Virus record (IMG/VR): IMGVR_UViG_3300030098_004824
Location: 1 to 64,000 of that record
Strand: one strand, 5' to 3'
Length of the DNA stretch: 64,000 nt
Origin: a virus
Positions 3,008-18,537 of the stretch are shown here, piece after piece. Numbering within the stretch: position 1 is the first letter of the stretch; each line of letters opens with the position of its first letter. The position numbers and the translations under genes were made by a program. Under the pieces are notes generated by a model. The model did not search any database, was not told the DNA's origin, and worked only from the letters and a program-made list of their open reading frames with translations.

Positions 3008-3151
3008 TTGAAGGACAAGAAAGCAGCGAAAAAGATTATTAAATTGGCAAAGAAACATCCTGATTGGTACACACCAGAAGAAGTTAAGTATGCTAAACAA
3101 GTTAAGTGGAGAATTAAACAAGAAGAAAAGGAGAGTAAGAAAAGTGGATGA
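3008..3151 (+). CDS. Small basic hypothetical protein (probable TTG start at 3008)
   Basis: LKDKKAAKKIIKLAKKHPDWY..., follows TATAAATA at 2972. Confidence 0.5.
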   Translation: MKDKKAAKKIIKLAKKHPDWYTPEEVKYAKQVKWRIKQEEKESKKSG

Positions 3152-3334
3152 AGAATATACAGAAAAGGAATATTGGGATGGTGAAGTACCTGATGAACTA
3201 TTTGATGAGTACCTTAAGAAGTATGGTTATGATTACACTCCTTAACATAAAAATAAAGACATAATTAAGAAAGAGTGGTTTGCATAGATATTATGATATA
3301 ATTATTATCATATCCTCACATTTCTATCAAAAAA

Positions 3335-3556
3335 ATGATTAATTTAGACCAGACATACGAATCTTACTTAGATGGAAGCAAAAAGATGAGGATAGATGGT
3401 GTTGAGGAGAGAGTTAAGGCATACGGTTGGCATTGTGATGGTAATGATATTAAGGGACATTATGTAACAACAGAGAATTATCAGTTATTTTATAATATGG
3501 AAGGATTATTTACAAAGATGGTGGCACTCAGAGAACTGGCACAAACTACTGCGTGA
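3335..3556 (+). CDS. Hypothetical protein
   Basis: ORF track. Confidence 0.6.
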   Translation: MINLDQTYESYLDGSKKMRIDGVEERVKAYGWHCDGNDIKGHYVTTENYQLFYNMEGLFTKMVALRELAQTTA

Positions 3557-3599
3557 ATGAATATCTTTCTGGTATAATAGGATTATAGATAAAAATAAA

Positions 3600-4001
3600 A
3601 TGAAAACAGCACTTGCCGTATTGTTGGCACTCACACCTGTTTCTACACTTGCTGATGAGTATCAACCAGGTTATTCTTCTTCTAAGTCTTGTTACAGATC
3701 AGAATATAGAGAAGAATATATTCCAGGAACGGAGGATCAACCTGGATATGTAAGATCTTGGAAGGAAACTATTGAGTTCCCTTGTGATAGAAATAGAGCA
3801 ACAATTACAAGACCAACAAGAACAGTAGTAGAAAGACACTATGAGGTTGATGATAATGATTGTACTGATGGGAAAGTTGCTGGTGGTATTTTAGGTGGTG
3901 GTCTTGCTGCTGCTATATCAAGAGGAGATGGTAGATGGTGGGCAATTCCATTAGGTGTTGTTGCTGGTAGTGCTATTGGATGTGATGCTGCTGGAGGTTA
4001 A
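3600..4001 (+). CDS. Secreted/membrane protein with C-terminal glycine zipper (2TM)
   Basis: Signal peptide MKTALAVLLALTPVSTLA; GGILGGGLAAA...PLGVVAGSAIG. Confidence 0.7.
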   Translation: MKTALAVLLALTPVSTLADEYQPGYSSSKSCYRSEYREEYIPGTEDQPGYVRSWKETIEFPCDRNRATITRPTRTVVERHYEVDDNDCTDGKVAGGILGGGLAAAISRGDGRWWAIPLGVVAGSAIGCDAAGG

Positions 4002-4006
4002 ACAAA

Positions 4007-4035
4007 GGGGGATCGCCTAAAGTGTTCCAGTAGTG
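4007..4035 (+). repeat. 29-bp module-boundary motif, copy 1
   Basis: GGGGGATCGCCTAAAGTGTTCCAGTAGTG. Confidence 0.9.
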
Positions 4036-4480
4036 AGAAACAGTTGAGGGTCAAACTACTCTGACAGTTTTGAGAGGGATATGTGGTTCTACTGCCCGAA
4101 CATTCCAAGATTTCCTATATCCACATTAGTGCGAAGAAATGGTTATCTTATTAAGATCTCCTATACCAACACGAAGTTGAAGAAATGGTTATCTGATTAG
4201 TAGGGGTTCAGGTGTAAGCGATTCCCAGTAGGTAAATTTGGGCATATAGGTGAAACCTATGTCGATGCCCCACTCCCTCTCAAACAAGAAGCAGAGACAT
4301 GACGTTTGATTAAAATGACTTACCCCTCAATGTTTCTCCCACTAATTTGGGCAAGGATCTATGGTTGTCTCTGTTCAGCAGAGAAATTACGTCCTGTAAG
4401 TCCCACACACAAAAACGAGGAGATGGATGTGCCTCTGGGATCGCAACCCAAGAAAGAACTAACATCCGCTAGCTTTTTTA
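4031..4480 (+). ncRNA. Large structured non-coding RNA or 5' leader (family unknown)
   Basis: Long-range stems 4031-4051/4322-4344 and 4068-4079/4274-4284, hairpin 4240-4270, 46-nt tandem unit 4107-4198, crossing pairing 4290-4299/4366-4375, terminal hairpin 4425-4467 plus U-tract. Confidence 0.7.
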
Positions 4481-4491
4481 TTATTTTTTCA

Positions 4492-4662
4492 ATGGCATAC
4501 CACCATGAATGGAGTCAATCTTATTTTAATGGATTGACGTTTGAAGAACACCACATCAATAATGAGTGGTTTAATGGCACATTGTCAATGTTAAAAGATG
4601 ATGGTATATTATATGTACCAGTTCTTGACAAAGAATTTAACAGACAAGGTGAGGAAGTATGA
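4492..4662 (+). CDS. Hypothetical protein (probable true start 4492)
   Basis: ATG follows the structured leader and U-rich tract. Confidence 0.6.
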   Translation: MAYHHEWSQSYFNGLTFEEHHINNEWFNGTLSMLKDDGILYVPVLDKEFNRQGEEV

Positions 4663-4781
4663 CTGAAAAACATTTTATTAACAAAACTGATGAAATGATT
4701 GAAGATTTCATCGAAGAATGTGAAAAGGAAGCATCAAAATTAGAAGTCACAGTTGACTATTATCTTGCCGAGTTTGTTTGA
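4659..4781 (+). CDS. Small acidic hypothetical protein (40 aa)
   Basis: MTEKHFINKTDEMIEDFIEECEKEASKLEVTVDYYLAEFV, ATGA overlap. Confidence 0.6.
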   Translation: MTEKHFINKTDEMIEDFIEECEKEASKLEVTVDYYLAEFV

Positions 4782-4806
4782 CAAACTCGGTTTTTTTCTT
4801 TATAAT
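4768..4806 (+). promoter_or_regulatory. Terminator hairpin overlapping a consensus sigma70 promoter
   Basis: CCGAGTTTGT-TTG-ACAAACTCGG plus T-tract; TTGACA 4778, 17 nt, TATAAT 4801. Confidence 0.8.
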
Positions 4807-4831
4807 ACATACTATTAGTGAATACAAAACT

Positions 4832-5047
4832 ATGGCAGAAAAACTTTATACCATTTTAGAATTATCTACTAATGGTTGGCATCCAATAGAAGGAGAGGAT
4901 GTACAAATATCTAAAGCAAAATGTGATGAACGTATTAAATATCATTTGGGAAAGGGAGTTTCTCCTGAAAGATTAAAAGCAGTTGTTGATAACAGAAATC
5001 TTGGTAAAAAGGAGTTAGATTTTACAATTACAGGCGATACTGAGTAA
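4832..5047 (+). CDS. Hypothetical protein (start probably 4832)
   Basis: ATG downstream of the promoter. Confidence 0.6.
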   Translation: MAEKLYTILELSTNGWHPIEGEDVQISKAKCDERIKYHLGKGVSPERLKAVVDNRNLGKKELDFTITGDTE

Positions 5048-5385
5048 TGTATGAACCTCAAGTCGATGACTATGTAATTTGGAAAAGACCAAATGGCGAC
5101 TGGGAAGAGGGATGGGTTTACTTTAAGGGTGATCCAGTAGATAATGAGAAAAGAGTAAAGAGTGGATGGAATCCTGTATCACAGTATATCACTATTGAAA
5201 CTGGTGTTAGACCAAAAAAGGATTGTGTTTATACAAGTGGTAAACCAATGAGGCACAAAATGATTCATACATTATTATTGTGCAATAAAGACTGCTGGCA
5301 AGAATTAGAATATGTAAAGAACAGAAGAGATCAAGCAAGTCTTGATATGTATAAATCACAAGATGGAAGACATCCTGATTATTAG
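5047..5385 (+). CDS. Hypothetical protein
   Basis: TAATG overlap; stop abuts motif copy 2. Confidence 0.65.
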   Translation: MYEPQVDDYVIWKRPNGDWEEGWVYFKGDPVDNEKRVKSGWNPVSQYITIETGVRPKKDCVYTSGKPMRHKMIHTLLLCNKDCWQELEYVKNRRDQASLDMYKSQDGRHPDY

Positions 5386-5387
5386 GG

Positions 5388-5416
5388 GGGGGATCGTTTA
5401 AAGTGTCCTTATTTTG
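5388..5416 (+). repeat. 29-bp motif, copy 2
   Basis: GGGGGATCGTTTAAAGTGTCCTTATTTTG. Confidence 0.9.
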
Positions 5417-5431
5417 TAATTAACAATTATT

Positions 5432-5560
5432 ATGCCTGAAGATTTATTTAATCTACCTTCTGAAGATATTGAACAAATGATTCAAGATCTACCAGAAATG
5501 AATGATAAGGATGTTTCTAAATCTTTCGACAAATTCTTAAACTCTACTACCGATTTTTAA
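5432..5560 (+). CDS. Small acidic hypothetical protein (42 aa)
   Basis: MPEDFINLPSEDIEQMIQDLPEMNDKDVSKSFDKFLNSTTDF. Confidence 0.55.
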   Translation: MPEDLFNLPSEDIEQMIQDLPEMNDKDVSKSFDKFLNSTTDF

Positions 5561-5561
5561 A

Positions 5562-5765
5562 ATGAAACCTGCTGCTATTCTTTATGAACTTCAAGAATTA
5601 AGAGATACTTGGAGAAAACAATCATTCTCTTTTACTGTTGAGCAACAGAAACAATATGATAGATTAACATCATTAAGAAGAGAAAGAGTTAAGTATTTTC
5701 ACGATAATAATTTAGTATGGAAGGGTGCGTCTACTGCTGGTAAAACAACTGTACAAGATAAATAA
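5562..5765 (+). CDS. Hypothetical protein
   Basis: ORF track. Confidence 0.6.
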   Translation: MKPAAILYELQELRDTWRKQSFSFTVEQQKQYDRLTSLRRERVKYFHDNNLVWKGASTAGKTTVQDK

Positions 5766-5783
5766 CTAAAAAGTTATATAAAA

Positions 5784-6341
5784 ATGAAAACTTTTCATCA
5801 GTTTATTGCTGAAGTATATGATAAAGATGTAGTGGGAAGATCCCAAATCACCAAACAAGGTGAGGGTGGAAGAGTAGGTGCTAAACGTAAGAAAACTGAA
5901 CCAGAAAAGAAAAGAGTGAAAGCAGTAGGTGGAGGTAAAACTGCACCTGCTAAAGATTATAAACCACGTAAAGATATTGGTACACAGAAACCAAGATCCC
6001 AACGTGAGCAACAACCAACAAAGGAAAGAGGATCTGCTGGTTTATCAGCAAGGGAGCAACAAAGGAAGGCAGCACAAGAAAGAAGAGCAGCAAAATCTGG
6101 TGCTAAAACTAAATCAGCAGATGAATTATTAAGAACAAAGGCAAAGAAAACTGTAGATCCTAAGTATAAACCAACTAAAGCATCTGGAATGACTGCTAAA
6201 GAACGTCAGTCATTAACACGTAAGGGTGAAAAGAAATTAAGAGATCTTAGACTTACTAATACTGGTAAAAAGAAAGAGAGTGAATTAAAGCATCCAGTTA
6301 CACATAAAGAAATATCAAGAAGAAAAAAACAAAATAAGTGA
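5784..6341 (+). CDS. Highly basic putative internal head protein with capsid-targeting-like N-terminus
   Basis: MKTFHQFIAE resembles the T4 IPII/IPIII CTS MKTYQEFIAE; late-promoter-like GATAAATA at 5757. Confidence 0.6.
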   Translation: MKTFHQFIAEVYDKDVVGRSQITKQGEGGRVGAKRKKTEPEKKRVKAVGGGKTAPAKDYKPRKDIGTQKPRSQREQQPTKERGSAGLSAREQQRKAAQERRAAKSGAKTKSADELLRTKAKKTVDPKYKPTKASGMTAKERQSLTRKGEKKLRDLRLTNTGKKKESELKHPVTHKEISRRKKQNK

Positions 6342-6347
6342 ATAAAA

Positions 6348-6376
6348 GGGGGATCGCTTAAAGCGTTCTTATATTG
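6348..6376 (+). repeat. 29-bp motif, copy 3
   Basis: GGGGGATCGCTTAAAGCGTTCTTATATTG. Confidence 0.9.
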
Positions 6377-6389
6377 AATATACTTTATT

Positions 6390-6890
6390 ATGAAACCAGA
6401 AGAAAAATATCAACAACTCTTTGAAGATATGTATTCTCTATGTGAAGAGAATAACTGGGGAGATCCCTTTAGTTATGCACGTTCTCGTGAGATACATTTA
6501 GCAGGATTACTTGGTCATCGTGTTGCAGATGATTATTCTGGTGCAGATGCTTATGATGTTAATAATAATCCAGTAGAATATAAATCTACTATTGGTAAGA
6601 AATTAACTGCAACATATAATGGTATTAGTGTACAAAATACTTGGGAAGATCAAGTTAAGTATTTACAGGAAGAAAAAATAGGTAAGTATAAACATCATTA
6701 CTACGCTAGGTATCAATCAGGCAAGGTAATTGAGGTTTACAGATTACACGCAGATGTGGTATTATCAATATTATTACCACCATTAAAGAAACAATTTGAG
6801 AGTGATAAAGTTAAGAAAGATCCTAGATTAGGATATACTATTTCTAACAAACTCATTCTACAATATGGAGAGAAAGTTTATGCTGGATAG
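6390..6890 (+). CDS. Putative PD-(D/E)xK restriction-endonuclease-like protein
   Basis: SRE...GADAYDVNNNPVEYKS pattern; overlaps an MTase gene. Confidence 0.5.
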   Translation: MKPEEKYQQLFEDMYSLCEENNWGDPFSYARSREIHLAGLLGHRVADDYSGADAYDVNNNPVEYKSTIGKKLTATYNGISVQNTWEDQVKYLQEEKIGKYKHHYYARYQSGKVIEVYRLHADVVLSILLPPLKKQFESDKVKKDPRLGYTISNKLILQYGEKVYAG

Positions 6891-7422
6891 TGGCAAATTA
6901 ATGTATAGTAAAGGTAATAATGATGAGTGTTATACACCACATTATGCTGTAACTCCTATCCTAAAGTATATTCCAAAGGATGCTATTGTATGGTGTCCTT
7001 TTGATACACAAGATAGTGAGTTTGTAAAACAAATTGAGAAACAAAATGAGGTAACATATTCTCATATTAATACTGGAAGAGATTTCTTTGAGTATGAACC
7101 ATTTGAATGGGATGTAATGTTATCTAATCCACCATTTACTAATAAGAGAAAGTATTTTGAAAGAGCATTATCATTTAATAAACCATTTGCATTGATTATG
7201 ACTAACACTTGGTTGAATGATTCAGCACCTAAACAGTTATTTAAAGATAGAGATTTGCAGTTGCTTATGTTTGATAAGAGAATGAAGTTTATTAGTCCTG
7301 ATGGTAGAAATAATGATAAGATAACATTTAGTAGCAGTTATTATTGTTGGAACTTCTTACCTAAACAAATAATTATGGAAGAATTGATAATTAGTGAATC
7401 TAAAGCAAAATTAATAATATAG
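6880..7422 (+). CDS. DNA adenine methyltransferase-like protein (start probably 6880)
   Basis: DECYTP, VWCPFD, GRDFF, SNPPF motifs; GGAG SD at 6867. Confidence 0.75.
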   Translation: MLDSGKLMYSKGNNDECYTPHYAVTPILKYIPKDAIVWCPFDTQDSEFVKQIEKQNEVTYSHINTGRDFFEYEPFEWDVMLSNPPFTNKRKYFERALSFNKPFALIMTNTWLNDSAPKQLFKDRDLQLLMFDKRMKFISPDGRNNDKITFSSSYYCWNFLPKQIIMEELIISESKAKLII

Positions 7423-7451
7423 GGGGGATCGTTTAAACTGTCCCTATATTG
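7423..7451 (+). repeat. 29-bp motif, copy 4
   Basis: GGGGGATCGTTTAAACTGTCCCTATATTG. Confidence 0.9.
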
Positions 7452-7498
7452 TACCTGTATGCTCCTGTAAGGGGTCTATTCATTTATTATGGTATATT

Positions 7499-8674
7499 AT
7501 GTTTAAATTGAGAAATCATCAATTAGCAGTACTTAGAACTTTACAAGAGAATCGTAAAGGTCAAATTATTGTGCCTACTGGTGGTGGTAAAACAATATGT
7601 ATGATTGAGGATGCTAAGTATCAATTTACAATGAACAATGTATCAAAAACTATTGTAGTTGTTGCTCCTCGCATACTATTAGCACAGCAATTATGTGAAG
7701 ATTTTTTAGAATTAATTGATAATGTGCATATTCTTCATGTACATTCAGGAGAGACACATCATACAAGCACAACTAAAATTGATTTGATTAAACAATGGGT
7801 AGGTGATAATGTTGGTAATAAGATTATATTTACAACATATCATTCACTTCATAAGTTAATAGAATCTGATGTATTTGTAGATACAATATATTTTGATGAA
7901 GCACATAATGGAGTTCAGAAGAACTTTGTTGAAGCAGTTGAGTATCATTCAATGTATGCTAATCGTTGCTATTTCTTTACTGCTACACCTAAACATTCCA
8001 AGACACCATTTAAGATAGGAATGAATGATCAAGATATATTTGGTAGGGTGTTGGTGAATGTACCAGCACCTAAATTAGTGGATGAAGGTGTTATTTTACC
8101 ACCTAAAGTTAGGATTAAAAAGATAGATGTTGTTGATGATAGTAGATTCAAGCACGAACACGATTGTGACCATCTTGTATCAACTATGGATGAAATTGAT
8201 GCAGATAAAATATTAATCTGTGCAAGATCTACCAAACAGATTGTTAATTTAGTATCACAAACTGATTTTTGTGTTGAGTTAAAACTTCGTGGATATAATT
8301 GGATGTATATTACTGCAAAAACTGGGGCAGTTATCAATGGTAAGAAAGTTGATCGTGAATCTTTCTTTAATACCCTAAACAGTTGGGGTCAGGACGATTC
8401 AAAGCGATTTGTTGTTATTCATCATAGCATATTATCTGAAGGTATTAATGTTAGAGGACTTGAAGCAGCATTATTCTTAAGAAATATGGATTACATTACT
8501 ATTAGTCAAACAATAGGTAGAGTAATAAGAAAAGGTAATGAATCTAAAACTTATGGATTGATTTGTGTACCAGTTTATGATAAAGTAGGTATATCAACAG
8601 CAAGAAAAGTTGAGGCAGTTGTTGATACTGTCTTTGATAAAGGTCAACCCGCTATTTCTACAATAACAAAATGA
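7499..8674 (+). CDS. SF2 DEAD/DEAH-like helicase (ResIII-like)
   Basis: PTGGGKT, DEAH, TATP, LSEGIN, QTIGRVIR. Confidence 0.85.
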   Translation: MFKLRNHQLAVLRTLQENRKGQIIVPTGGGKTICMIEDAKYQFTMNNVSKTIVVVAPRILLAQQLCEDFLELIDNVHILHVHSGETHHTSTTKIDLIKQWVGDNVGNKIIFTTYHSLHKLIESDVFVDTIYFDEAHNGVQKNFVEAVEYHSMYANRCYFFTATPKHSKTPFKIGMNDQDIFGRVLVNVPAPKLVDEGVILPPKVRIKKIDVVDDSRFKHEHDCDHLVSTMDEIDADKILICARSTKQIVNLVSQTDFCVELKLRGYNWMYITAKTGAVINGKKVDRESFFNTLNSWGQDDSKRFVVIHHSILSEGINVRGLEAALFLRNMDYITISQTIGRVIRKGNESKTYGLICVPVYDKVGISTARKVEAVVDTVFDKGQPAISTITK

Positions 8675-9102
8675 TTACATTAGCATTAGTAACTGGTGGA
8701 TTCGATCCATTACACTCAGGTCACATTGCATATTTCAATGCAGCAAAAGAATTAGGTGATAGTTTATGTGTTGCAGTTAATTCAAATGATTGGTTAATTA
8801 GAAAGAAAGGGAAATACTTTATGACTGCACCTGAAAGAATTTCTATCATTTCAGAGTTAAGAATGGTGGATGCTTGTATAGAATTTAATGATAAAGATGA
8901 TACTGCTAATGATGCAATTAAGATGGCATTAGAGGTTTACGATAACATTATTTTTGCAAATGGTGGTGATCGAGGTAATACAAACACCCCAGAATATGAA
9001 GAGTTTAAAGATGATAATAGAGTCAAATTTGCGTGGGGTGTTGGTGGTGATGATAAAAAGAATAGCAGTTCTTGGATATTAGATAGGTGGACAACAAAAT
9101 GA
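8671..9102 (+). CDS. Cytidylyltransferase-like nucleotidyltransferase (RfaE/TagD-like)
   Basis: TGGFDPLHSGH, NSNDWL, ANGGD, SSS motifs. Confidence 0.85.
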   Translation: MITLALVTGGFDPLHSGHIAYFNAAKELGDSLCVAVNSNDWLIRKKGKYFMTAPERISIISELRMVDACIEFNDKDDTANDAIKMALEVYDNIIFANGGDRGNTNTPEYEEFKDDNRVKFAWGVGGDDKKNSSSWILDRWTTK

Positions 9103-9344
9103 CTAAAAAAATACACCCTCGTGAATATATGTCTAATGACTACTGGAAGTATAATTTAGATGAACCAGAATATAAACGTGGATCTCTTCATAATAAAATA
9201 GGTATGATAATTATGTTTATTTTCTATGGTATAGTTTTAGTACAATTATTACACGCATTTACTATAATACCATTTTTTCCTATTACTTTCACAATCTTAT
9301 TAGGATTATTGTTTATAGTTTATGTTGCGTGGAGGGCATCTTGA
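9099..9344 (+). CDS. Small membrane protein
   Basis: Two hydrophobic segments in the C-terminal half. Confidence 0.6.
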   Translation: MTKKIHPREYMSNDYWKYNLDEPEYKRGSLHNKIGMIIMFIFYGIVLVQLLHAFTIIPFFPITFTILLGLLFIVYVAWRAS

Positions 9345-10273
9345 AAGATACTATTTTGTTTGGAGATTGTCTCCAAACACTTAAACAATTCGATGAAAAA
9401 GCAAGGTGTTGCATCACATCTCCACCTTATTATGGTTTAAGAGATTATGGAGGGGAGGATTGTCAGATAGGACAAGAAGAATCTCCAGAAGAGTATATTC
9501 AAAAATTAGTATTAGTATTCCAAGAGGTGCGTAATAATTTAACAGAAGATGGAACATTGTGGTTAAACATTGGAGATAGTTATTATAACTATAGACCTGG
9601 AAAAGGTCAATCATTAGTTAAACAAACTGTTTCTGCTAATAAACAAGATTTACCAGACAAATGTGCAAGAAGAGGTAACAAACTAAAAGGATATAAAGAG
9701 AAAGATTTAATTGGTATTCCCTGGATGTTAGCATTTGCATTAAGAGCAGATGGATGGTATTTAAGACAAGATATTATATGGCATAAACCTAATCCAATGC
9801 CCGAAAGTGTGAAGGATAGATGTACTAAATCCCACGAATATTTGTTCCTCTTAAGTAAGAACAAGAGGTATTATTATGACAATGAAAGTATCAAAGAACC
9901 AGCAAAAGATTGGGGAACAAGAGATAGAACTAAAGGAAAATATCACAATAAAGGTACAGGATTACAACCTCATTCTGGTCTTACTAAATCATATCCAAAG
10001 AAGAATAAAAGGTCAGTTTGGAGTATAACAAATAAACCATATAGAGGGGCACATTTTGCAACTTTCCCAAGAGATTTAGTGGAACCTTGTATATTAGCAG
10101 GTTCACAAGTTAATGATATTATTCTTGATCCTTTTATGGGATCTGGAACAACAGCAATGGTAGCAAAAGACTTGGGAAGATATTACATAGGGTGTGAATT
10201 GCACGAAGATTATGGTAAATTAATAAAAAACAGAATATGTGAACAAGGGGGATCGCTTAAAGCGTTCTTATAG
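9329..10273 (+). CDS. DNA N4-cytosine/N6-adenine methyltransferase (beta class)
   Basis: TSPPY, HFATFP, DPFMGSGTT; C-terminus encoded by motif copy 5. Confidence 0.9.
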   Translation: MEGILKDTILFGDCLQTLKQFDEKARCCITSPPYYGLRDYGGEDCQIGQEESPEEYIQKLVLVFQEVRNNLTEDGTLWLNIGDSYYNYRPGKGQSLVKQTVSANKQDLPDKCARRGNKLKGYKEKDLIGIPWMLAFALRADGWYLRQDIIWHKPNPMPESVKDRCTKSHEYLFLLSKNKRYYYDNESIKEPAKDWGTRDRTKGKYHNKGTGLQPHSGLTKSYPKKNKRSVWSITNKPYRGAHFATFPRDLVEPCILAGSQVNDIILDPFMGSGTTAMVAKDLGRYYIGCELHEDYGKLIKNRICEQGGSLKAFL

Positions 10274-10275
10274 TG
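10247..10275 (+). repeat. 29-bp motif, copy 5
   Basis: GGGGGATCGCTTAAAGCGTTCTTATAGTG. Confidence 0.9.
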
Positions 10276-10361
10276 TAAGGGATATGCACAGAGCAGACCT
10301 TGAAACTTAAATGATTTCAAGGCATCACAGAAGAGAAATTGCAAGTTCTCACTCCTTTACA
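10274..10361 (+). ncRNA. Multibranch structured 5' leader
   Basis: TGTAAGGGA/TCCTTTACA closing stem with arms TGC/GCA, CCTTGAAA/TTTCAAGG, GAGAA/TTCTC. Confidence 0.55.
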
Positions 10362-10384
10362 TCTATTGTTTATTTTCAAACTAA

Positions 10385-10690
10385 ATGGCAACACGCAGAC
10401 GCACATCAGCAACTCGCAAAACTGCTAAATCTGCTCCCGCTATTGTTAAGGAATCAAGGGCAAGTGTTAAGAAAGTTACAACAACTGCCCCAAAACGTGT
10501 AAATAAAGTTACACCGAAGAAGGTAATTGAAGTGGCAGAAGTAACACCAACTCCCGTAAAAGATACCCTTAACTTAGAGAAACTATTCAAGGATTATCCT
10601 CGTGATGGTTTCGCACTTGCTCTCCTTCCTTTACTATTATTGGAAGCATTAACCAAAGAAGGTTTAAAGATAGCAGGTGTAATTTCGTAA
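10385..10690 (+). CDS. Hypothetical protein, basic N-terminus and hydrophobic C-terminus
   Basis: MATRRRTSATRKTAK...; FALALLPLLLLEAL. Confidence 0.65.
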   Translation: MATRRRTSATRKTAKSAPAIVKESRASVKKVTTTAPKRVNKVTPKKVIEVAEVTPTPVKDTLNLEKLFKDYPRDGFALALLPLLLLEALTKEGLKIAGVIS

Positions 10691-10703
10691 AGAATATTAC
10701 ATT

Positions 10704-10737
10704 GGGGGTTGAAAGATCCCCTTTTTTATGTTAAAAT
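10704..10737 (+). promoter_or_regulatory. Terminator hairpin overlapping a sigma70-like promoter
   Basis: GGGGGTT-GAAA-GATCCCC plus T-tract; TTGAAA-17 nt-TAAAAT with extended TG. Confidence 0.6.
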
Positions 10738-10749
10738 GAATTTATTATT

Positions 10750-11667
10750 ATGCAAAACAAACACATTGAACATCCTGAAGATTCCATTCTAAATGGTGAT
10801 TTAGATGTATTAAATTGGTTTACCACTAATGGTAAAATAACAGCAAAGATTGATGGTGCTCCAGCAATAGTTTGGGGGACTAATCCTGTTAATAATAAAT
10901 TCTTTATTGGAACTAAAAGTGTCTTCAACAAAAAACTCATCAAAATCAACTATAACCATACCGATATTGATAGAAACCATCAAGGAAAAGTGGCAGATAT
11001 TTTGCATATCTGTTTTGACAATCTTCCTGATACAAGTAATATCTACCAAGGTGATTTCATCGGTTTTGGTGGCACTGATTCTTTCAATCCTAACACCATC
11101 AGATACATTTTCCCAGATAAGATTACCCAAGAAATAGTAATAGCACCGCACACATCTTACACCACTAATGGTGATTTAAGAGATGCAATTGCAAGACCTA
11201 TTAGTGATAAAGAACTAATATCTTTATGGCAAGATGCAGAAGATGTTTACTTTGTTTATCCTGAAGTAACATTAGATCAGGAAAGAGATAGTATAATCGA
11301 AAGATGCAAATTTGCAAGACAAATTGCAACTTTATGTGAGTTCCCTAATGATAAACAAGTAAAAAGGATTAAGAAGCAATTAAATACTTGTATTCGTGAA
11401 GATATAGAGATAGATGATATAGTACAGGAAGTACTTGCTAATGATAACAATATAGACGTAAATGTATTGCGTTTGTGGAAATTAGTGCAGACAATTAAGC
11501 ACGATATGTTTAACTATATTTCGTGTAATGATGATGTTGAATGTTACATTGAGGAAGAATATTGCGATCACGAAGGATATGTAATGGTAAATGAGTTTGG
11601 TACATTTAAGATCGTTAATCGTGAAGGATTTAGTAAAGCAAACTTCAATCTCTCTAAAATGAGATAA
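10750..11667 (+). CDS. Phage protein with ligase/capping nucleotidyltransferase-like motifs
   Basis: KIDG (motif I), YQGD, HEGYV, FKIV in the expected order. Confidence 0.5.
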   Translation: MQNKHIEHPEDSILNGDLDVLNWFTTNGKITAKIDGAPAIVWGTNPVNNKFFIGTKSVFNKKLIKINYNHTDIDRNHQGKVADILHICFDNLPDTSNIYQGDFIGFGGTDSFNPNTIRYIFPDKITQEIVIAPHTSYTTNGDLRDAIARPISDKELISLWQDAEDVYFVYPEVTLDQERDSIIERCKFARQIATLCEFPNDKQVKRIKKQLNTCIREDIEIDDIVQEVLANDNNIDVNVLRLWKLVQTIKHDMFNYISCNDDVECYIEEEYCDHEGYVMVNEFGTFKIVNREGFSKANFNLSKMR

Positions 11668-11668
11668 A

Positions 11669-11697
11669 GGGGGATCGTTTAAAGTGTTATAATAGTG
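11669..11697 (+). repeat. 29-bp motif, copy 6 (fused to hairpin 11694-11733)
   Basis: GGGGGATCGTTTAAAGTGTTATAATAGTG; AGTGAGGAT/ATCCTCACT. Confidence 0.9.
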
Positions 11698-11758
11698 AGG
11701 ATATACATCCATTTCTGGTTAGGAATCCTCACTTTAATTTCATTTCTTTATTTTGTTT

Positions 11759-12178
11759 ATGTCAACTTTACCTGAAAGAGTTCTCGATTGGACTGAAACC
11801 TATTGTGAATCTCTTACAGAAAATTACAAACAACATAGTGTAAGAATGTATGAAAGTTCAACATCTGACTATTCAAAACAGTGTTTGGAAAATGTAAAGA
11901 ATGGCACTGCTAATCTTACTAACTTTGTTATCAAGAATGGTCGCAAGTATTACAAGATTATGCAACGTGAATTTGATACTTTCCAAGATCGTAATGAATG
12001 GAGAGAAGGATGTGTTCACGCATTTGTTGATAAGAATACAGGTGAAGTTTACAAACCTGCTTCTTATAATTCACCAGCAAAGCACGTTAGATATGATTTA
12101 AGGATCATAAATGATCGTGCTAAGTTACACAATCCAGACTATACTGGATGGGCAGGTGGTTATCTCTATATGAGATAA
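11759..12178 (+). CDS. Hypothetical phage protein
   Basis: VHAFVDKNTGEVYKPASYNSPAKHVRY; ATG after U-rich leader. Confidence 0.7.
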   Translation: MSTLPERVLDWTETYCESLTENYKQHSVRMYESSTSDYSKQCLENVKNGTANLTNFVIKNGRKYYKIMQREFDTFQDRNEWREGCVHAFVDKNTGEVYKPASYNSPAKHVRYDLRIINDRAKLHNPDYTGWAGGYLYMR

Positions 12179-12214
12179 TCACCATTTTTACTATACCATA
12201 AGGAGGTTAATTCA

Positions 12215-12442
12215 ATGTATTCAAGTGACACTTTTGGAAGAATCTTCTGGGTTGATGAAGATTTAGAGTTCAGATCTTGCCCACTAAATGTTGATGGGAC
12301 TGGTGATTTTACCTGCGAAGATTATGTATCAGAGTGGGATGATTGGAGTGAGGTTAATTATAGTTTGCTCTTCCAAATTCACAAGACTTGTTTACATTTA
12401 AAACAAGATCATCACAATTCAGTTAATTTAGTAGGAGTTTAA
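12215..12442 (+). CDS. Hypothetical protein
   Basis: AAGGAGG SD. Confidence 0.65.
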   Translation: MYSSDTFGRIFWVDEDLEFRSCPLNVDGTGDFTCEDYVSEWDDWSEVNYSLLFQIHKTCLHLKQDHHNSVNLVGV

Positions 12443-12447
12443 TTATT

Positions 12448-12630
12448 ATGTCAAATATCAACAACGAAGCAATATTAGAGTCACTATATGATGAAGTATG
12501 GGAGGAATTCCGTATTGCTAATAAACTAACTGATGACCAAATGTATGAGTTAGAGCAGTCAAATAGTGGTGGTACTTTCGATCAGTTAGTATCAACAACT
12601 AATCAAAGATTTGAGGATTTATGCCAATGA
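12448..12630 (+). CDS. Hypothetical acidic protein
   Basis: AGGAG SD. Confidence 0.6.
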   Translation: MSNINNEAILESLYDEVWEEFRIANKLTDDQMYELEQSNSGGTFDQLVSTTNQRFEDLCQ

Positions 12631-12812
12631 TTACAACAACTGTTTCATTCAAACCTATCACAAAACGTGCAAGATGTGGTAAATGGGGCAAGCATATTAT
12701 GTGCCCTAATTGTAAATCAATCAGCAAAGTTTATCATTTTAGTTGGTCAGGATTACAATGTTCTCAATGTTATAAAACAATAGATAAATTACATTGGAGT
12801 GTAGAACAATGA
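12621..12812 (+). CDS. Small zinc-ribbon protein
   Basis: CPNC...CSQC. Confidence 0.6.
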   Translation: MPMITTTVSFKPITKRARCGKWGKHIMCPNCKSISKVYHFSWSGLQCSQCYKTIDKLHWSVEQ

Positions 12813-12949
12813 AATGGGACGTTAAGTTATACGTAGGCGGTCAAGTCTTCGTAGAAAGTGTTAGAGCAGTCAACTATTCTGATGCAAAAGAAACAGCATT
12901 GGCACGTAATCCTAAAGCAAAGTTTATATCAGCAAACCCAATTCCGTAA
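12809..12949 (+). CDS. Small hypothetical protein (46 aa)
   Basis: MKWDVKLYVGGQVFVESVRAVNYSDAKETALARNPKAKFISANPIP; ATGA overlap. Confidence 0.65.
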   Translation: MKWDVKLYVGGQVFVESVRAVNYSDAKETALARNPKAKFISANPIP

Positions 12950-12955
12950 AGTAAA

Positions 12956-13192
12956 ATGTTATCACCTATACAATTAATGGATCTAAAAAGAATATATTCT
13001 GAGATAATTGTTGATCAGATGAGTGATAACGAGATTATAGAATATGTGACTAAAGATATAGAAATTGAATTAGATTCTGTTTGTGAGTATGATTTAAGGA
13101 AGGAAATCGTACAGACAGTAGGTATAAAGAAATATCGTGCAATGTTAGATATAATATTAACAGAAGGGGGATCGTCTAAAGTGTCCTATTAA
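12956..13192 (+). CDS. Hypothetical protein; C-terminus encoded by motif copy 7
   Basis: Ends TEGGSSKVSY. Confidence 0.6.
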   Translation: MLSPIQLMDLKRIYSEIIVDQMSDNEIIEYVTKDIEIELDSVCEYDLRKEIVQTVGIKKYRAMLDIILTEGGSSKVSY

Positions 13193-13194
13193 TG
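13166..13194 (+). repeat. 29-bp motif, copy 7 (fused to hairpin 13193-13234)
   Basis: GGGGGATCGTCTAAAGTGTCCTATTAATG; TGAGGGTTTGGT/ACCAAACCTCA. Confidence 0.9.
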
Positions 13195-13260
13195 AGGGTT
13201 TGGTTATTCTCTCTTTGATTACTACCAAACCTCACAAGTTTTCTTTAATTCTTTTCATTT

Positions 13261-13428
13261 ATGTCTGAAACATTCCGTACTATTCGTATTACTGAAGCAG
13301 AGGAGAATATGCTTGTTGAAATGATACAATTTTTCAACGATATGGGTTGGGTAAATCCTGATTCACAAGCAGATTACGATTCTTTCACTGATAAAGTATG
13401 CGAACCTGCATTCTGGGAGTATAACTAA
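13261..13428 (+). CDS. Small hypothetical protein (55 aa)
   Basis: MSETFRTIRITEAEENMLVEMIQFF... Confidence 0.6.
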   Translation: MSETFRTIRITEAEENMLVEMIQFFNDMGWVNPDSQADYDSFTDKVCEPAFWEYN

Positions 13429-13474
13429 TGCTCCCTATTTTTCTGTCCTTTATTATTACTTTGGAGTCATTATT

Positions 13475-13636
13475 ATGAGGTATTCTGTTCACTGTCCATC
13501 TGCACCTTTTGAAAATAGTTCTTTCATTAACCTTGAAGATTGTTGGGGTTTATGTTTAGATTTATCAGAAGAATACGGTTATGCAGAAGTTAGACACGGA
13601 AATTGTGTCTTAGGTTCTTATACAAATGGAGGTTAA
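13475..13636 (+). CDS. Small hypothetical protein (53 aa)
   Basis: MRYSVHCPSAPFENSSF...CLDLSEEYGYAEV; GGAG SD. Confidence 0.6.
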   Translation: MRYSVHCPSAPFENSSFINLEDCWGLCLDLSEEYGYAEVRHGNCVLGSYTNGG

Positions 13637-13638
13637 TT

Positions 13639-13908
13639 ATGCTTGAAACATTTACAGAATTTGCTGATTATGTGTGGTCATTCTATGCACCTAACAGCGA
13701 TCTTTATCCAATTAAAGGTTTAACAATCGAAGATGTATTTCAGGCAATCTTTACATATAAGCAGAGATTACTGAAAGTAAGTTATAACAATCCTGAGTAT
13801 GTTGCTGCTTATGGTAACAATTATTCTTGGGGTTATGGTGATAGTTTAGATAGAGAAAGAGTCAGAGATATTATACTTGAGCAACCACAATTCTCTTGGA
13901 GTTCTTAA
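13639..13908 (+). CDS. Hypothetical protein
   Basis: GGAGG SD; GDSLDRERVRD. Confidence 0.65.
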   Translation: MLETFTEFADYVWSFYAPNSDLYPIKGLTIEDVFQAIFTYKQRLLKVSYNNPEYVAAYGNNYSWGYGDSLDRERVRDIILEQPQFSWSS

Positions 13909-14194
13909 CAATGAAAGTATCAAAATTAACATCAACAAAGTATCAACAACCGAACAATTCTGGGTATAGTTCACTCATAAAGATTAGTTTGGTTAATGAT
14001 ATACAAGACGAAGAGAATCAGCGTAAATATTGTTATAAACCCTATCGAACTTTGTACAATTATTAATATGGAAATGAACGATTATTCCGATCCACGTTAT
14101 AAAGATCTCTACGAAGAAATCTTAATTGATTATAACTGGAGATACGGTAAGTTTAGTCCTATTCCTTATCCAAAGTACACAAATTGTAATCCAA

Positions 14195-14419
14195 ATGAAA
14201 AACAATCTATTGAAATCTCTTCAGAATGATATTGCTTACTGCATTGATTATCTGGAGTTAAATGATAATCAAATCGGTGAAATGTTACGTGCTTGTGAAC
14301 AATTAGGTGGCATCAGTGTTGAATACTTTTGCGAAGAATTTATCTTCCAATGTGATAACGAAGATGAGTTAGATCGTTTACATAATGATAACTATCTAAA
14401 AATTGATTGGAAGTTATAA
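14195..14419 (+). CDS. Hypothetical protein (start uncertain)
   Basis: Stop abuts motif copy 8. Confidence 0.55.
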   Translation: MKNNLLKSLQNDIAYCIDYLELNDNQIGEMLRACEQLGGISVEYFCEEFIFQCDNEDELDRLHNDNYLKIDWKL

Positions 14420-14420
14420 A

Positions 14421-14449
14421 GGGGGATCGACTAAAGTGTCCTATTAATG
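14421..14449 (+). repeat. 29-bp motif, copy 8 (fused to ~80-nt hairpin 14448-14528)
   Basis: GGGGGATCGACTAAAGTGTCCTATTAATG; GGGGTTAAGT/ACTTAATTCC, TTATCAG/CTGATAA, ATACAC/GTGTAT. Confidence 0.9.
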
Positions 14450-14555
14450 AAGGGGTTAAGTTAGGTTATCAGGGGCATACACACTCGTTGGTGTATTGTT
14501 AGACTGATAAAGACTTAATTCCCACTCAACAAGTTTTCTTTACTATTTGTTACTT

Positions 14556-14903
14556 ATGAGAAAAATTGAAAGACAAATGAATTTCGCAATTTCAAACAAA
14601 GGTAACTGGTCTTCATCAAATACCCAAGTTAGTTATAACGATTCAACAAATTGTTCTTCTGTTTATCTTCACGGGCATCAAATTGCAACCTTTGACCATA
14701 ACTTAAAAGCAGTTAAATTGTCATCTTGTGGTTATCAAACTAACACCACAAAATCACGTTTAAATGCTATTTTAGATGAGGTAAAATGGGGTTGTAAAGT
14801 ATTCCAAAAGAACTGGGATTGGTTCGTTAGTTATAACAATCAAACTCAATCTTTCATTGATGGAATGATACTTATTGATGCTAATCATCTGGAAGTGGCA
14901 TAA
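14556..14903 (+). CDS. Hypothetical phage protein
   Basis: MRKIERQMNFAI...TTKSRLNAIL. Confidence 0.7.
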   Translation: MRKIERQMNFAISNKGNWSSSNTQVSYNDSTNCSSVYLHGHQIATFDHNLKAVKLSSCGYQTNTTKSRLNAILDEVKWGCKVFQKNWDWFVSYNNQTQSFIDGMILIDANHLEVA

Positions 14904-14948
14904 ACCCCACTTCCTTTTTTCTGTCCTTTATTATTACTTGCTAAAGCA

Positions 14949-16031
14949 ATGCGAATCTTAACTACAACTGAATACAACGAAGTTTGCAAGAGTTATGAAC
15001 AATTTGGTAGCAAACTATTTGATGAAATGTTTTTAGGTTATGATGACAATTCAGTCTCATATCTTTATAACGAGGACTACTATTTTGGAGGTACTAAGTA
15101 ATGGAATTAACTTCAAAAGATGGGAATATGGTTGTTGATTTCTATCCAATTAAGGACTGGAATAATAACATCGATCCGACTAATCGTATGTTAAAAGTAT
15201 TATCTTTCAGAGGTGATATGCAAAAGAAAATGTTAATTAGTAAGATTGAATTTTATTCACAAGTAAAAGAGTATATTAACACCTATAAGTATAAGATAAC
15301 AAGCGAATATATGCCAGCACAGTATTATTCAGAAGAGGTAATATTATGATTAAAAAGTATATCTCCCCGATTGATAATTGCGAGTTTGATTATCAAATAG
15401 TCAACGGCAATTTATCATATAAGATAGAAGGAACTGACTGGCAAGATTTCATATTAGAAGATAAAAGAGCATATTCACCAGAACAATATGCAGAATTTCT
15501 ATCACTTTTGGAGGTATAATAGTATGAGAACATTACACTTAACTAATCAACAATTTGACGTACTATATCACATATTAGAAGATACAGTTCTTGATATTGA
15601 AGAAGATGTAGTTAGTGATACTGTAACCTATCAAATTTACAAACAATTAATTCATTTAAAAGGAGGTAAATTCAATGACTAAGTATCAACAAAGTGCAAA
15701 TCCAAATGCAACTAATAGTGAATTAGATGCAAAACAGATTATAACACATAAGGAGTTAAATCCTAGTCAAAGAAGTAAACTAATTGAACAGTATGTAGAG
15801 TTAGTTGTTGATAATATGGACGTTAAATCTATGATGCAATTTATCACTGAAGAGTTAGAAATTAGGTATCGAAATGATTATACAGATGTTGAATTAAGAG
15901 AAGAAATTAATAACTTTGATGAGGAATTATATGATGAGTTAGTTGATAACGTAACACAACAATACCCTAAACAAGATGTTAAACAGAGTCTTAATCAGAT
16001 GGAAACATTTATACCAAATTTCCACGATTAA
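14949..16031 (+). CDS. Run of five small hypothetical ORFs (14949-15101, 15101-15349, 15346-15519, 15524-15682, 15675-16031)
   Basis: Overlapping or abutting stop/start codons and GGAGG-type SD sites. Confidence 0.6.
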
Positions 16032-16094
16032 GAAGGTATTATTAACAATCAGAGAAGGTATATTAGGTATAGTGTGTAATAACCAAATACAGAG

Positions 16095-16414
16095 AGTTTT
16101 CCACAGATATTAACACTAACTGTGGAAAACTTAGTGTTTTTAGTGTTAAATAGCGTTTTAAATGCCATTATAAATATACATCTGTTTTGTAAAGGTTTTC
16201 CACAATGTTGTTAATAACTGTGTGTAATATGTGGAATAAGTGTTAATAAGGGGGTTTATATTGTGGATTAATTGTTGATAAGTAAGGTGATAATTAATGT
16301 CTCTAAATGTCATTATTTCTTGTGATCTTAGCGAGCGTATTATAACACGAACGCCCGAAATATGTCAAGGATTTATGATATTTTCTGTCATAAGTCTGTC
16401 AGGGTTTTTCCACA
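16095..16414. promoter_or_regulatory. Cluster of DnaA-box-like 9-mers (putative replication origin)
   Basis: TTTTCCACA at 16097(+), 16121(-), 16196(+), 16406(+); variants at 16230(-), 16262(-), 16273(-); non-coding, AT-rich. Confidence 0.6.
16339..16368 (-). promoter_or_regulatory. Leftward sigma70 promoter with no downstream ORF
   Basis: Minus strand TTGACA-18 nt-TATAAT with extended TG. Confidence 0.65.
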
Positions 16415-16442
16415 TTTTTCCGTTATAATATGCACAGAGTTC

Positions 16443-16471
16443 TTGACAACAACTCCGTTTAATCTTATAAT
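16443..16471 (+). promoter_or_regulatory. Consensus sigma70 promoter
   Basis: TTGACA-17 nt-TATAAT. Confidence 0.8.
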
Positions 16472-16500
16472 GAATAGTATCACCCACCCAGGACAATCCA

Positions 16501-16674
16501 ATGGCAGTTACTAACAACAACTGGACGAAGACTAAGTATAGAATAACGTTGGAATTAGATGTGTTTGATGACTTTAATCCCAGACAAATTGCGTGGGGTA
16601 AAGTGTTAGATTTGGGTGGATCTGAACACGTAGAAAGTTATATCGAAGACCTGTCTAATCCTGTGAGGTGGTGA
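16501..16674 (+). CDS. Small hypothetical protein (57 aa)
   Basis: MAVTNNNWTKTKYRITLELDVFDDFNPRQIAW...; AGGA SD. Confidence 0.65.
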   Translation: MAVTNNNWTKTKYRITLELDVFDDFNPRQIAWGKVLDLGGSEHVESYIEDLSNPVRW

Positions 16675-16680
16675 TAACAA

Positions 16681-16709
16681 AGGGGATCGAATAAAGTGTC
16701 CTATTAGTG
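16681..16709 (+). repeat. 29-bp motif, copy 9 (fused to hairpin 16706-16749)
   Basis: AGGGGATCGAATAAAGTGTCCTATTAGTG; AGTGTAAGCGAGGAGCA/TGTTCTTCGTTAACACT. Confidence 0.9.
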
Positions 16710-16776
16710 TAAGCGAGGAGCAGCAAATTGCGTGTTCTTCGTTAACACTTTTTGCAGTCTATTTTTACTACACAAA

Positions 16777-16905
16777 ATGTCAAACAGCGTAGAACAGTTT
16801 GTATCACCTAACTTCGCAGAATTTCTGTTAGATAGTGTTAACAATGGTGATGAAATCCTTGCAGTGTTAGATGATCTTTATGAGGTGCAATCTACCCCGC
16901 TTTAA
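16777..16905 (+). CDS. Small acidic hypothetical protein (42 aa)
   Basis: MSNSVEQFVSPNFAEFLLDSVNNGDEILAVLDDLYEVQSTPL. Confidence 0.55.
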   Translation: MSNSVEQFVSPNFAEFLLDSVNNGDEILAVLDDLYEVQSTPL

Positions 16906-16915
16906 TGTTAGAAAC

Positions 16916-16960
16916 TGTGTGGGGCAGTTGTTGACACATTGCCCCTTCACATGTTATAAT
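16916..16960 (+). promoter_or_regulatory. Hairpin-embedded sigma70 promoter facing a non-coding region
   Basis: GGGGCAGT/ATTGCCCC stem around TTGACA 16931; TG-T-TATAAT at 16955. Confidence 0.65.
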
Positions 16961-17219
16961 AAAAGTATGAATTAAGGAACAAACAGTTAGTATTACATAA
17001 GCACTCCAATATGGGCAGTGTTTATAACATCGTGATCGCAGTGTTTTGGCGGCGTTGTTATTTGTTGGCGGCGGGCGTTGCGGGCTTAAAAAAAGGAACC
17101 TTCCTAACCTACAGAGGTGACAATTCGAGAGAGTGATATCGAATATAAAAAAAATTTTGCCAGGAAAAAAATGCCCCTATAGAGTTTTTTAAAAAACCGC
17201 CCACAAGACTACCAGTAAT

Positions 17220-17490
17220 CAGTTAGTATTCAGGTATTAAAACTCTTGTTAGTTTTCACTCATTAATACTCAAAAATTCAGTTAGTATTCAAGGCGAAAT
17301 ACTCTTGTTAGTATTCATGCCGTAATACTCAAAAATTTAGTTAGTATTCAACCCAAAAAATTCTTGTTAATTTTCAAAGTGTAATACTCAGTTAATATTC
17401 AAGGGAAAAAACTCTTGTTAGTTTTCATAATCTAATATTCAGTCAGTATTCAAGAACAAATACTTTTATCAGTATTCAAGTGTTAATACT
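17220..17490. repeat. Tandem array of five 51-59 bp units containing ten AGTATT-N8-AATACT-type dyads
   Basis: Units start at 17220, 17279, 17338, 17389, 17440. Confidence 0.85.
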
Positions 17491-17545
17491 CTGTTAGTTT
17501 GGTAGAAATTGGCAGGAGAAATATATAAAAAAATAGAGGAGAAAA

Positions 17546-17719
17546 ATGTCAGGATCTACTTATCACATATACTTAAAGGATAGGTGTTTATTCAAAGATC
17601 TTGACTCAGAGGAATTCAAAGTAATATGGTCGAGGCTTTACCATTCTTATTGGGACGATATTACATATTCAGAGGTGGCGGATATTACTACAAAGATATA
17701 CGAAGAAGATTCATATTGA
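17546..17719 (+). CDS. Small hypothetical protein (57 aa)
   Basis: MSGSTYHIYLKDRCLFKDL...; AGGAG SD. Confidence 0.65.
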   Translation: MSGSTYHIYLKDRCLFKDLDSEEFKVIWSRLYHSYWDDITYSEVADITTKIYEEDSY

Positions 17720-17744: not shown

Positions 17745-17766
17745 TTGTATGTAATTACAAAATACT

Positions 17767-18534: not shown

Positions 18535-18537
18535 GGT

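Follow-up and report, generated by a model that had tools for sequence, protein, structure and literature searches.

A candidate non-sigma70 promoter element with a genome-private box heads gene blocks in the early-type region of a T4-like cyanophage

In the window analyzed here, the first 64 kb of a 77.5-kb IMG/VR record (IMGVR_UViG_3300030098_004824) from a T4-like cyanomyovirus, we observed nine copies of a 29-nt motif that recur at the heads of gene blocks and share one orientation with the genes. With a probability of roughly 60%, we regard these repeats as a lineage-specific class of non-sigma70 promoters with a genome-private box, which would give rise to messages that are either leaderless or begin with a 5′ hairpin, and which also form a seam between gene blocks. 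The repeats would then be this lineage's version of a modular transcription-start element that sits in the region upstream of the baseplate genes in many marine T4-like cyanophages.

The nearest named relatives of the record are the Prochlorococcus phages P-TIM68 and P-SSM2, together with single-cell-derived marine viruses such as AG-345-O18. The first 19 kb of the window consist of small genes on the + strand, and gp25/gp6-like baseplate genes follow at 19160–21593. Recognizable families among the small genes are two DNA methyltransferases, an SF2 helicase, a cytidylyltransferase-like protein, DUF6267, DUF7717 and Kyano_Gp96. This part of the window is the hyperplastic, early-type region of cyanomyoviruses.

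The motif opens with a box that reads exactly GGGGGATCG on the + strand at positions 4007, 5388, 6348, 7423, 10247, 11669, 13166 and 14421, and a ninth copy at 16681, also on the + strand, carries AGGGGATCG with a single mismatch. Matches to GGGGGATCG with at most one mismatch number 12 in the window against an expectation of 2.06, a count reached in none of 100 shuffles; the remaining ones, at 4263 on the − strand, 19620 on the + strand and 31014 on the − strand, lack the rest of the motif. All nine copies lie within 12.7 kb (4007–16709) in the same 29-nt register, and no further copy is present elsewhere in the whole 77.5-kb record. The exact scan and the shuffles thus bear out the first-pass annotation of this DNA, which had described nine + strand copies with a common register and consensus and had confined them to the early region. 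Seven of the copies start 0–6 nt past the upstream stop codon, with open reading frames (ORFs) ending at 4001, 5385, 6341, 7422, 11667, 14419 and 16674. For the ORFs ending at 10273 and 13192, the stop codon is supplied from within the motif, by copies 5 and 7 respectively. These ORF ends agree with what had been claimed of the upstream junctions, and an ATG is indeed found 13–15 nt past copies 2 and 3. The nine copies are the following.

4007–4035, + strand: motif copy 1, box GGGGGATCG plus core, then about 280 nt without a convincing ORF.
5388–5416, + strand: motif copy 2, with an ATG 15 nt downstream (5432).
6348–6376, + strand: motif copy 3, heading a two-gene block (6390–7422) for a phrog_35715 protein and a DNA methyltransferase.
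7423–7451, + strand: motif copy 4, heading a block for a helicase, a cytidylyltransferase-like protein and an N6_N4 methylase; it aligns with the single copy at position 4954 of L076, the AG-345-O18 stretch used in our alignments.
10247–10275, + strand: motif copy 5, giving the stop codon to the methylase gene 9329–10273.
11669–11697, + strand: motif copy 6, heading the DUF7717 gene 11759–12178.
13166–13194, + strand: motif copy 7, giving the stop codon to the ORF 12956–13192.
14421–14449, + strand: motif copy 8, heading the Kyano_Gp96 gene 14556–14903.
16681–16709, + strand: motif copy 9, the AGGGGATCG variant.

Copies 3 and 5 (6348–6376 and 10247–10275) are identical at 28 of 29 positions and have private variants in common, CT at positions 10–11 and GCGTTCT at 16–22. 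They bracket the DNA-modification genes, namely the two methylases, the helicase and the cytidylyltransferase-like protein.

The anatomy of the element is directly visible in these copies and their relatives. A 9-nt box (positions 1–9) is followed by a free 2-nt spacer and a core of about 20 nt, TAAAG(T/C)GT-CC(C)-TATAGTG. In the 14.5 kb of AG-345-O18 that we examined, there are eight copies of GGGGGGTCG-nn-TAAAGTGTCCTTATAGTG. The exact GATC version, GGGGGATCGNNTAAAG, gave only single, chance-like matches in other contigs of IMG/VR; with R allowed at position 6, the scan returned 102 loci with 135 unique instances. Their consensus is AA-GGGGGGTCG-yn-TAAAG(T/C)GT-CCC-TATAGTGTA, and the conserved stretch extends from position −1 to about +31. 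Because conservation ends at position −2, with less than 0.35 bit of information upstream of it in the 135 instances, the element has no −35 hexamer, in agreement with the earlier remark that TTGACA is missing from the motif. A relative that is 97% complete (190.8 kb) has 12 copies, all confined to 42.7–58.5 kb and to a single strand. P-TIM68 has an element of its own, 36 nt long and present in at least 13 copies, the 3′ half of which, TAAATTGA-nnTA-TTAATG, aligns with the core of the window, with TTAGTTACC as the box in place of the G-run. A scan anchored on the core (TAAAGTGTCCNTATAGTG) recovered 159 unique instances, among which the box position is filled by 41 different 9-mers. The boxes found on this common core include GGGGGGACG, GGGGGGTCG, ACTGAAGCG, TTAGTTACC, TTACTCACC and TCTGGGGCC, and some IMG/VR contigs join an ACTG-type box to the TAAAGTGT core.

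Within any one genome, we observe a marked constraint on the box. Contigs with at least three copies carry one box each, or very nearly one. The per-site difference within a locus is 0.055 in the box, compared with 0.339 in the 2-nt spacer and 0.396 in the six bases upstream, and between loci the boxes differ by 0.51 per site. Boxes are identical in 85% of within-locus pairs versus 9% of between-locus pairs. The copies of the window follow the same pattern, with a per-site difference of 0.025 in the box against 0.68 in the spacer. The fact that the spacer bases vary freely argues that recent duplication or gene conversion does not account for the sameness of the boxes, and these comparisons indicate that each copy is held to its own genome's box by selection. 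The simplest reading is that a reader of the box co-evolves with it and that the core would be read by something common to these phages.

In the mechanism that we propose, this common reader would be conserved machinery, in the simplest case the host RNA polymerase, and the box would be read by a genome-specific factor. The only sigma-like gene that we find is of the gp55 type. Searches for a T7-like polymerase in the record and in the near-complete relative, and for MotA (PF09114), gave no match, although the controls of both searches were silent as well. A more specific proposal is that these phages have orthogonal promoter–reader pairs, in which a fast-evolving phage factor, possibly delivered with the virion, reads the private box, at least 35 specificities sit on one core, and the host polymerase (or an unrecognized one) starts exactly at the motif 3′ end. 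We hold this proposal to be unlikely; if it were true, early gene expression would be non-interchangeable between co-infecting phages. A guide-like RNA complementary to the box was also considered and rejected. The sequence CGATGCCCC at 4263 is a complement with one mismatch, which is at chance level, and there is no covarying complement in AG-345-O18.

The G-rich box of the window contains an invariant GATC, which the first-pass annotation had suggested as a conserved, methylation-sensitive switch. Across the 135 instances, position 6 is G in 96%, giving GGTC, and many other elements have GGAC or quite different boxes. The GATC is therefore a lineage peculiarity of the nine copies in the window, and the suggestion finds no support. 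We rejected a GATC/Dam switch, the tetramer being not conserved across the family and merely not avoided in this genome.

The 3′ end of the element is tightly coupled to the start of genes. For each of the 135 instances, we recorded the first ATG from which an ORF of 35 codons or more runs. These ATGs occupy position 29 in 19 instances, position 35 in seven, position 31 in four and position 27 in a single one; positions 36–41 are empty, and a broad peak covers 42–53. The starts at position 29 (TATAGT-ATG) span at least four gene families. An ORF of this kind in locus L093 aligns from residue 1 with the window gene 10750–11667, and the ATG at position 29 is therefore a true start. In the window, this gene, which encodes the DUF6267 protein, begins 12 nt past the −10 hexamer of a sigma70-like TTGAAA-17-TAAAAT promoter, the same distance that separates the end of TAAAGT from an ATG at position 29. 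The sigma70-like promoter (10704–10752) implies a 5′ untranslated region of about 5–6 nt for the DUF6267 gene, and its counterparts in relatives directly adjoin the motif. Messages with almost no leader may be frequent among these phages.

Since functional RNA features begin at positions 27–29, we would place +1 at about A24–G27, inside TATAG, and assign a −10-like role to the TAAAGYGT block. The bimodal leader length, zero or at least 13 nt, is what would be expected if the 5′ end lay just upstream of 27–29, and the RNA 5′ end is most likely at about positions 24–27. Transcripts that start at the motif 3′ end would fall into three kinds: leaderless or nearly so, with the ATG at 29; with a leader of 13–25 nt; or with a stem-loop 1–3 nt from the 5′ end. 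The starts at 29, from at least four gene families, and the stems that begin at 27 lend indirect support to the original idea of a third, non-sigma70 promoter-like class with its 5′ end near the final TG. The RNA data available to us are assembled metatranscriptome contigs from four runs, which cannot show the 5′ or 3′ ends of transcripts and yielded no site at which many molecules begin; their summed depth rises from the bin preceding copy 1 to the bin following it in four of four runs, which is a weak hint only.

The stretch just past copy 1, at 4031–4480, contains no convincing ORF and is 83–96% identical at the DNA level to P-SSM2, P-SSM5 and several single-cell marine viruses, the proteins of which are only about 50–60% identical. 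In each of the four metatranscriptome contig sets, the bin that includes it has the highest summed depth, and variant joints are numerous. The fold of the region as a whole is not significant (z = −1.6), and it has no Rfam match. This stretch may be a conserved modular non-coding RNA.

Features that begin at the motif 3′ end could also mark the site of a cut. In such a case, the motif would be a processing or protection signal within a read-through transcript that is cleaved in the TATAG region, so that an upstream message would end just past its stop codon and the next message downstream would open with a hairpin or directly with AUG. Besides the start of AUGs and stems at 27–29, it would account for the way in which all nine copies abut or overlap the upstream stop codon and for the lack of a terminator ahead of the motif. 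The variable positions 10, 17 and 20–22 are pyrimidine transitions opposite the G-run, which would fit a hairpin of G-C and G-U pairs between box and core. However, non-G boxes (ACTGAAGCG, TTAGTTACC and others) keep the core without compensating change, so a box–core RNA hairpin is not required, and we rejected it because hybrid elements with other boxes retain the core. Moreover, a genome-private 9-nt box fits a co-evolving DNA- or RNA-binding reader better than a host RNase site, we identified no nuclease candidate, and the DUF6267 gene of the window has a sigma70-like promoter whose distance from the ATG is the same. We therefore judge cleavage at the motif to be quite unlikely. If the signal did act at the RNA level, it would suggest a message-punctuation system in abundant ocean viruses.

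Stem-loops are attached to the 3′ end of several copies. In the leaders of copies 5–9, the 5′ arm begins in the final (A/G)TG of the motif, and the hairpins are as follows.

10270–10366, + strand: leader hairpin of copy 5 (z = −2.7), with an outer stem that runs from the motif 3′ end and is kept with compensatory changes in relatives.
11694–11733, + strand: leader hairpin of copy 6, GUGAGGAU...AUCCUCAC (z = −2.5).
13193–13234, + strand: leader hairpin of copy 7 (z = −2.6).
14452–14522, + strand: leader hairpin of copy 8 (z = −2.4).
16706–16749, + strand: leader hairpin of copy 9, GC-rich and followed by UUUUU (z = −4.2, with none of 200 shuffles as stable).

The stem of copy 9 reaches −23.7 kcal/mol, with the UUUUU directly after it. 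In comparison with shuffles, the leaders of copy 1 (z = +1.2) and copy 4 (z = −0.8) show no significant folding. Hairpins had initially been noted at seven of the nine copies; those of copies 5–9 hold up (z = −2.4 to −4.2), and those of copies 1 and 4 do not, which leaves five. Fifteen related leaders ending in TTGTTTAT have an outer stem that pairs GUG+(U)RAGGG with CCCUY(A)CAC or CAU from position 27 and thereby takes in motif positions 27–29. The pairing is kept in at least 11 of the 15 through compensatory changes such as UAAGGG/CCUUUA, UGAG/CUCA and AGGGG/CCCCU. A stem-loop at the 5′ end would shield the RNA from 5′-end-dependent RNases. Such protection could be the role of the hairpins, and termination or attenuation could be another where U tracts follow, as at copy 9. 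A terminator scan of the motif leaders found a weak site at 7461–7475 only. The U tracts of the other hairpins are interrupted or distant.

Gene blocks are gained, lost and reordered at the motif. The clearest case is a cassette headed by copy 3.

6313–7415, + strand: motif-bounded cassette (copy 3 and two genes), present in the window and absent from AG-345-O18.

Window positions 5561–6312 align to 4220–4952 of L076 and positions 7416–8674 to 4947–6230, leaving 6313–7415 as an exact motif-to-motif insertion relative to AG-345-O18, which has one copy of the motif there. At copy 1, the upstream flank matches the AG-345-O18 copy at 2880 and the downstream flank its copy at 8970, an arrangement that amounts to a crossover within the motif. 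Relative to P-TIM68, the blocks are permuted. Their order in the window is the 6390–7422 pair, then the genes from helicase to dam, then the block that ends in DUF6267; in P-TIM68 it is dam, the homologues of 6390–7422, the DUF6267 homologue and the helicase. At the head of every permuted orthologous block stands the element of the genome in which the block resides. In 134 pairs of instances one flank is highly similar, and for 100 of them the likeness does not extend to the other side.

With about 30 nt of identical sequence at the head of each block, the element can serve as a seam for homologous recombination, and these alignments indicate that it does work in this way, blocks being inserted, deleted and permuted between relatives. 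In our model, the repeated heads of about 30 nt would be what lets homologous recombination insert, delete and reorder the blocks. The shuffling of cassettes that had been proposed at the outset gains indirect support from the 6313–7415 indel against AG-345-O18 and from the permutation against P-TIM68. The same indel and permutation, and the direct repeats that head blocks of 1–3 kb, would also be expected of a dedicated attC-like site for site-specific recombination, the promoter-like look being incidental. However, a tyrosine recombinase (PF00589) is absent from both the record and the 97%-complete relative, in a search whose control was positive in 14 of 14 genomes, and the suggestion of an attC-like site finds no support on this ground. 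Most box classes do not form the hairpin of an imperfect palindrome, pairing between box and core being limited to G-rich boxes, and every copy points the same way as the genes and shows a tight coupling to start codons. No dedicated recombinase is needed, since homologous recombination between 30-nt repeats explains the rearrangements, as described for the cassettes considered below (PMC4122927). We consider an attC-like site extremely improbable.

These cassettes, the promoter-early stem-loop (PeSL) elements, are known from the T4-type phages RB49/phi1, T4/PST and KVP40/nt-1 (Arbiol 2010, PMC2839356; Comeau 2014, PMC4122927). PeSLs have sigma70-like −35 and −10 boxes with a stem-loop just upstream that acts as a terminator, and they rearrange by homologous recombination between repeats (PMC4122927). 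Like PeSLs, the motif of the window is a repeated intergenic element in a hyperplastic region that heads one or a few ORFs and lies at the junctions of indels and replacements between close relatives. It differs from them in that it has no −35 box and starts 0–6 nt past a stop codon or overlaps it, its hairpins are downstream, variable and optional, and its box is private to the genome. The lack of a −35 box and the downstream position of the hairpins also leave the first assignment to the PeSL class without support, given the published definition (PMC4122927). Real PeSL look-alikes do occur in the window as composites of terminator and promoter at 4767–4806 and 10704–10737. In both, the terminator-like hairpin contains the −35 hexamer (TTGACA and TTGAAA, respectively), and the −10 follows 17 nt later.

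A different repeated element occupies this region in some other T4-like cyanophages. Doron et al. in 2016 reportedly mapped transcription start sites in Syn9 and P-TIM40 and described a novel, non-host-like element that drives the early genes of both phages and is said to be widespread in T4-like cyanophages. The motif of the window resembles it in being a long, conserved, non-host-like repeat before small genes upstream of the baseplate genes, co-oriented with these genes, in co-existing with host-like sigma70 promoters, and apparently in lacking motA and asiA. The class in Syn9, P-TIM40 and P-SSM2 consists of a (G)TG(G/T)CACA box, a spacer or GC hairpin, and TATAAT about 35–40 nt downstream, and in P-TIM40 the box is one half of a GTGACA-N10-TGTCAC dyad. 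Boxes of this second class (ACTGGCAC, GGTGGCACA and TTAGTG(T/G)CACA) are found at 15603–27082 of P-SSM2 (L078), 46337–53044 of Syn9 and 48897–54342 of P-TIM40. The TAAAGTGT core is not enriched in Syn9, P-TIM40, P-SSM2 or S-PM2 and counts as absent from them, and exact k-mer motif discovery in Syn9 was unsuccessful. On the + strand of the early region of the window, we found no member of the GGCACA class. A single GTGGCACA box is present on the minus strand at 1019–1026, upstream of the minus-strand gene 956–129, within the divergent gap that separates this gene from those of the + strand; the box is possibly an isolated member of the Syn9/P-SSM2-type class. In a literature search, the motif was not found in a relevant context, and papers that cite earlier work on cyanophages contained no description of the early motif.

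Two better-known promoter types share the general layout of the element. In the MotA-dependent middle promoters of T4, a MotA box at −30 is combined with a −10 element, a dedicated factor reading the box and the host polymerase the rest. The two-part arrangement of a specific upstream box and a generic downstream element is the same, whereas the sequences are unrelated, there is no TGCTT box in the window motif, and, unlike MotA boxes, those of the window type vary between genomes. The promoters of single-subunit phage RNA polymerases (T7, T3, SP6 and K11) are contiguous stretches of about 25–30 nt with TATA-G at the start, and like the element they place a variable specificity part upstream and a common melting and initiation part downstream. 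No T4-like cyanophage is known to encode a T7-like polymerase.

Several observations weigh against the promoter and seam that we favor. A DNA-binding or transcription-factor domain, as expected of a candidate box reader, was found in none of the 20 ORFs of the region. Early promoters that have been studied by experiment are linked to the element by analogy only, because the Syn9 and P-TIM40 elements belong to a different sequence class. Position 17 is C in 27% of copies, which weakens TAAAGT as a classical −10 hexamer. Pairing of positions 24–30 is not enriched over shuffled leaders in the family as a whole, and z falls below −2 in only 30% of 49 long leaders (mean z −1.4); since so few leaders fold significantly, the hairpins are an optional module of some leaders and not part of the element. 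For the seam, a two-gene indel at 8675–9341 does not lie at a motif, and the flank statistics were compiled without a control from motif-free junctions. Finally, TATAGT at 23–28 looks more like a −10 hexamer than TAAAGT does, and its use would put the box at a −35- or MotA-like position and +1 near 35.

This last point is the core of a further alternative, in which the element is a composite insulator. The downstream hairpin with its U-rich tail would end incoming transcription, and a new RNA, with TATAGT as −10 and +1 near 35, would start in the 5′ arm and thus escape termination. Functionally, this would be a PeSL with its order reversed, promoter first and stem-loop second. TATAGT is a good −10 (T 74%, A 70% and T 93% at the key positions), the box would fall at −34 to −26, the zone of −35 elements and T4 MotA boxes, and several hairpins are followed by U-rich tracts, that of copy 9 being the strongest example with UUUUU after its −23.7 kcal/mol stem. 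However, a +1 near 35 would cut off the start codons at position 29 and, more widely, those at 27–31 (24 instances from at least four gene families). Significant hairpins are missing from four of the nine window copies and from most family members, and the terminator scan passed over all of the strong leader hairpins. We consider an insulator of this kind very unlikely, and we retain initiation at about A24–G27 as the likelier course.

We infer the promoter identity of the element, its +1 position and the existence of a box reader from the constraint on the box and from the coupling of start codons and stems to the 3′ end. Should this reading be correct, the element family would offer a handle on how T4-like cyanophages begin infection without the T4 proteins Alt, ModA/B, MotA and AsiA, which is only partly understood. 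The diversity of the boxes predicts a specificity factor that could be found by comparative genomics. The element would also help to mark transcription units when uncultured cyanophage contigs are annotated, and it would explain the sites at which gene blocks are exchanged.

Promoters of the host-like class stand beside the motif. Four perfect TTGACA-17/18-TATAAT sites lie on the + strand within 1–20 kb of the window, in keeping with the original statement that perfect sigma70 promoters exist elsewhere in it, and the sigma70 scan did not pick up the motif copies. Besides the two composites described above, this host-like class was noted at the following positions.

16443–16471, + strand: sigma70-type site.
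16931–16960, + strand: sigma70-type site.
17716–17744, + strand: sigma70-type site.

T4 late promoters had been invoked as a second contrast to the motif. The classical T4 late octamer TATAAATA occurs exactly six times against 11.7 expected by shuffling, the cyanophage variant NATAAATA being left out of this count; as TATAAATA is not enriched, the contrast carries no weight. An Rfam search of window positions 1–20000 returned no relevant match.

The window as a whole strongly avoids 4-bp palindromes. GCGC and CCGG are absent (49 expected for each), GGCC occurs seven times against 49 expected, and CTAG, AGCT, CATG and TCGA are present at about 0.3–0.4 of expectation. GATC is found at 1.37 times its expectation, which fits the phage-borne Dam-type methylase encoded at 9329–10273.

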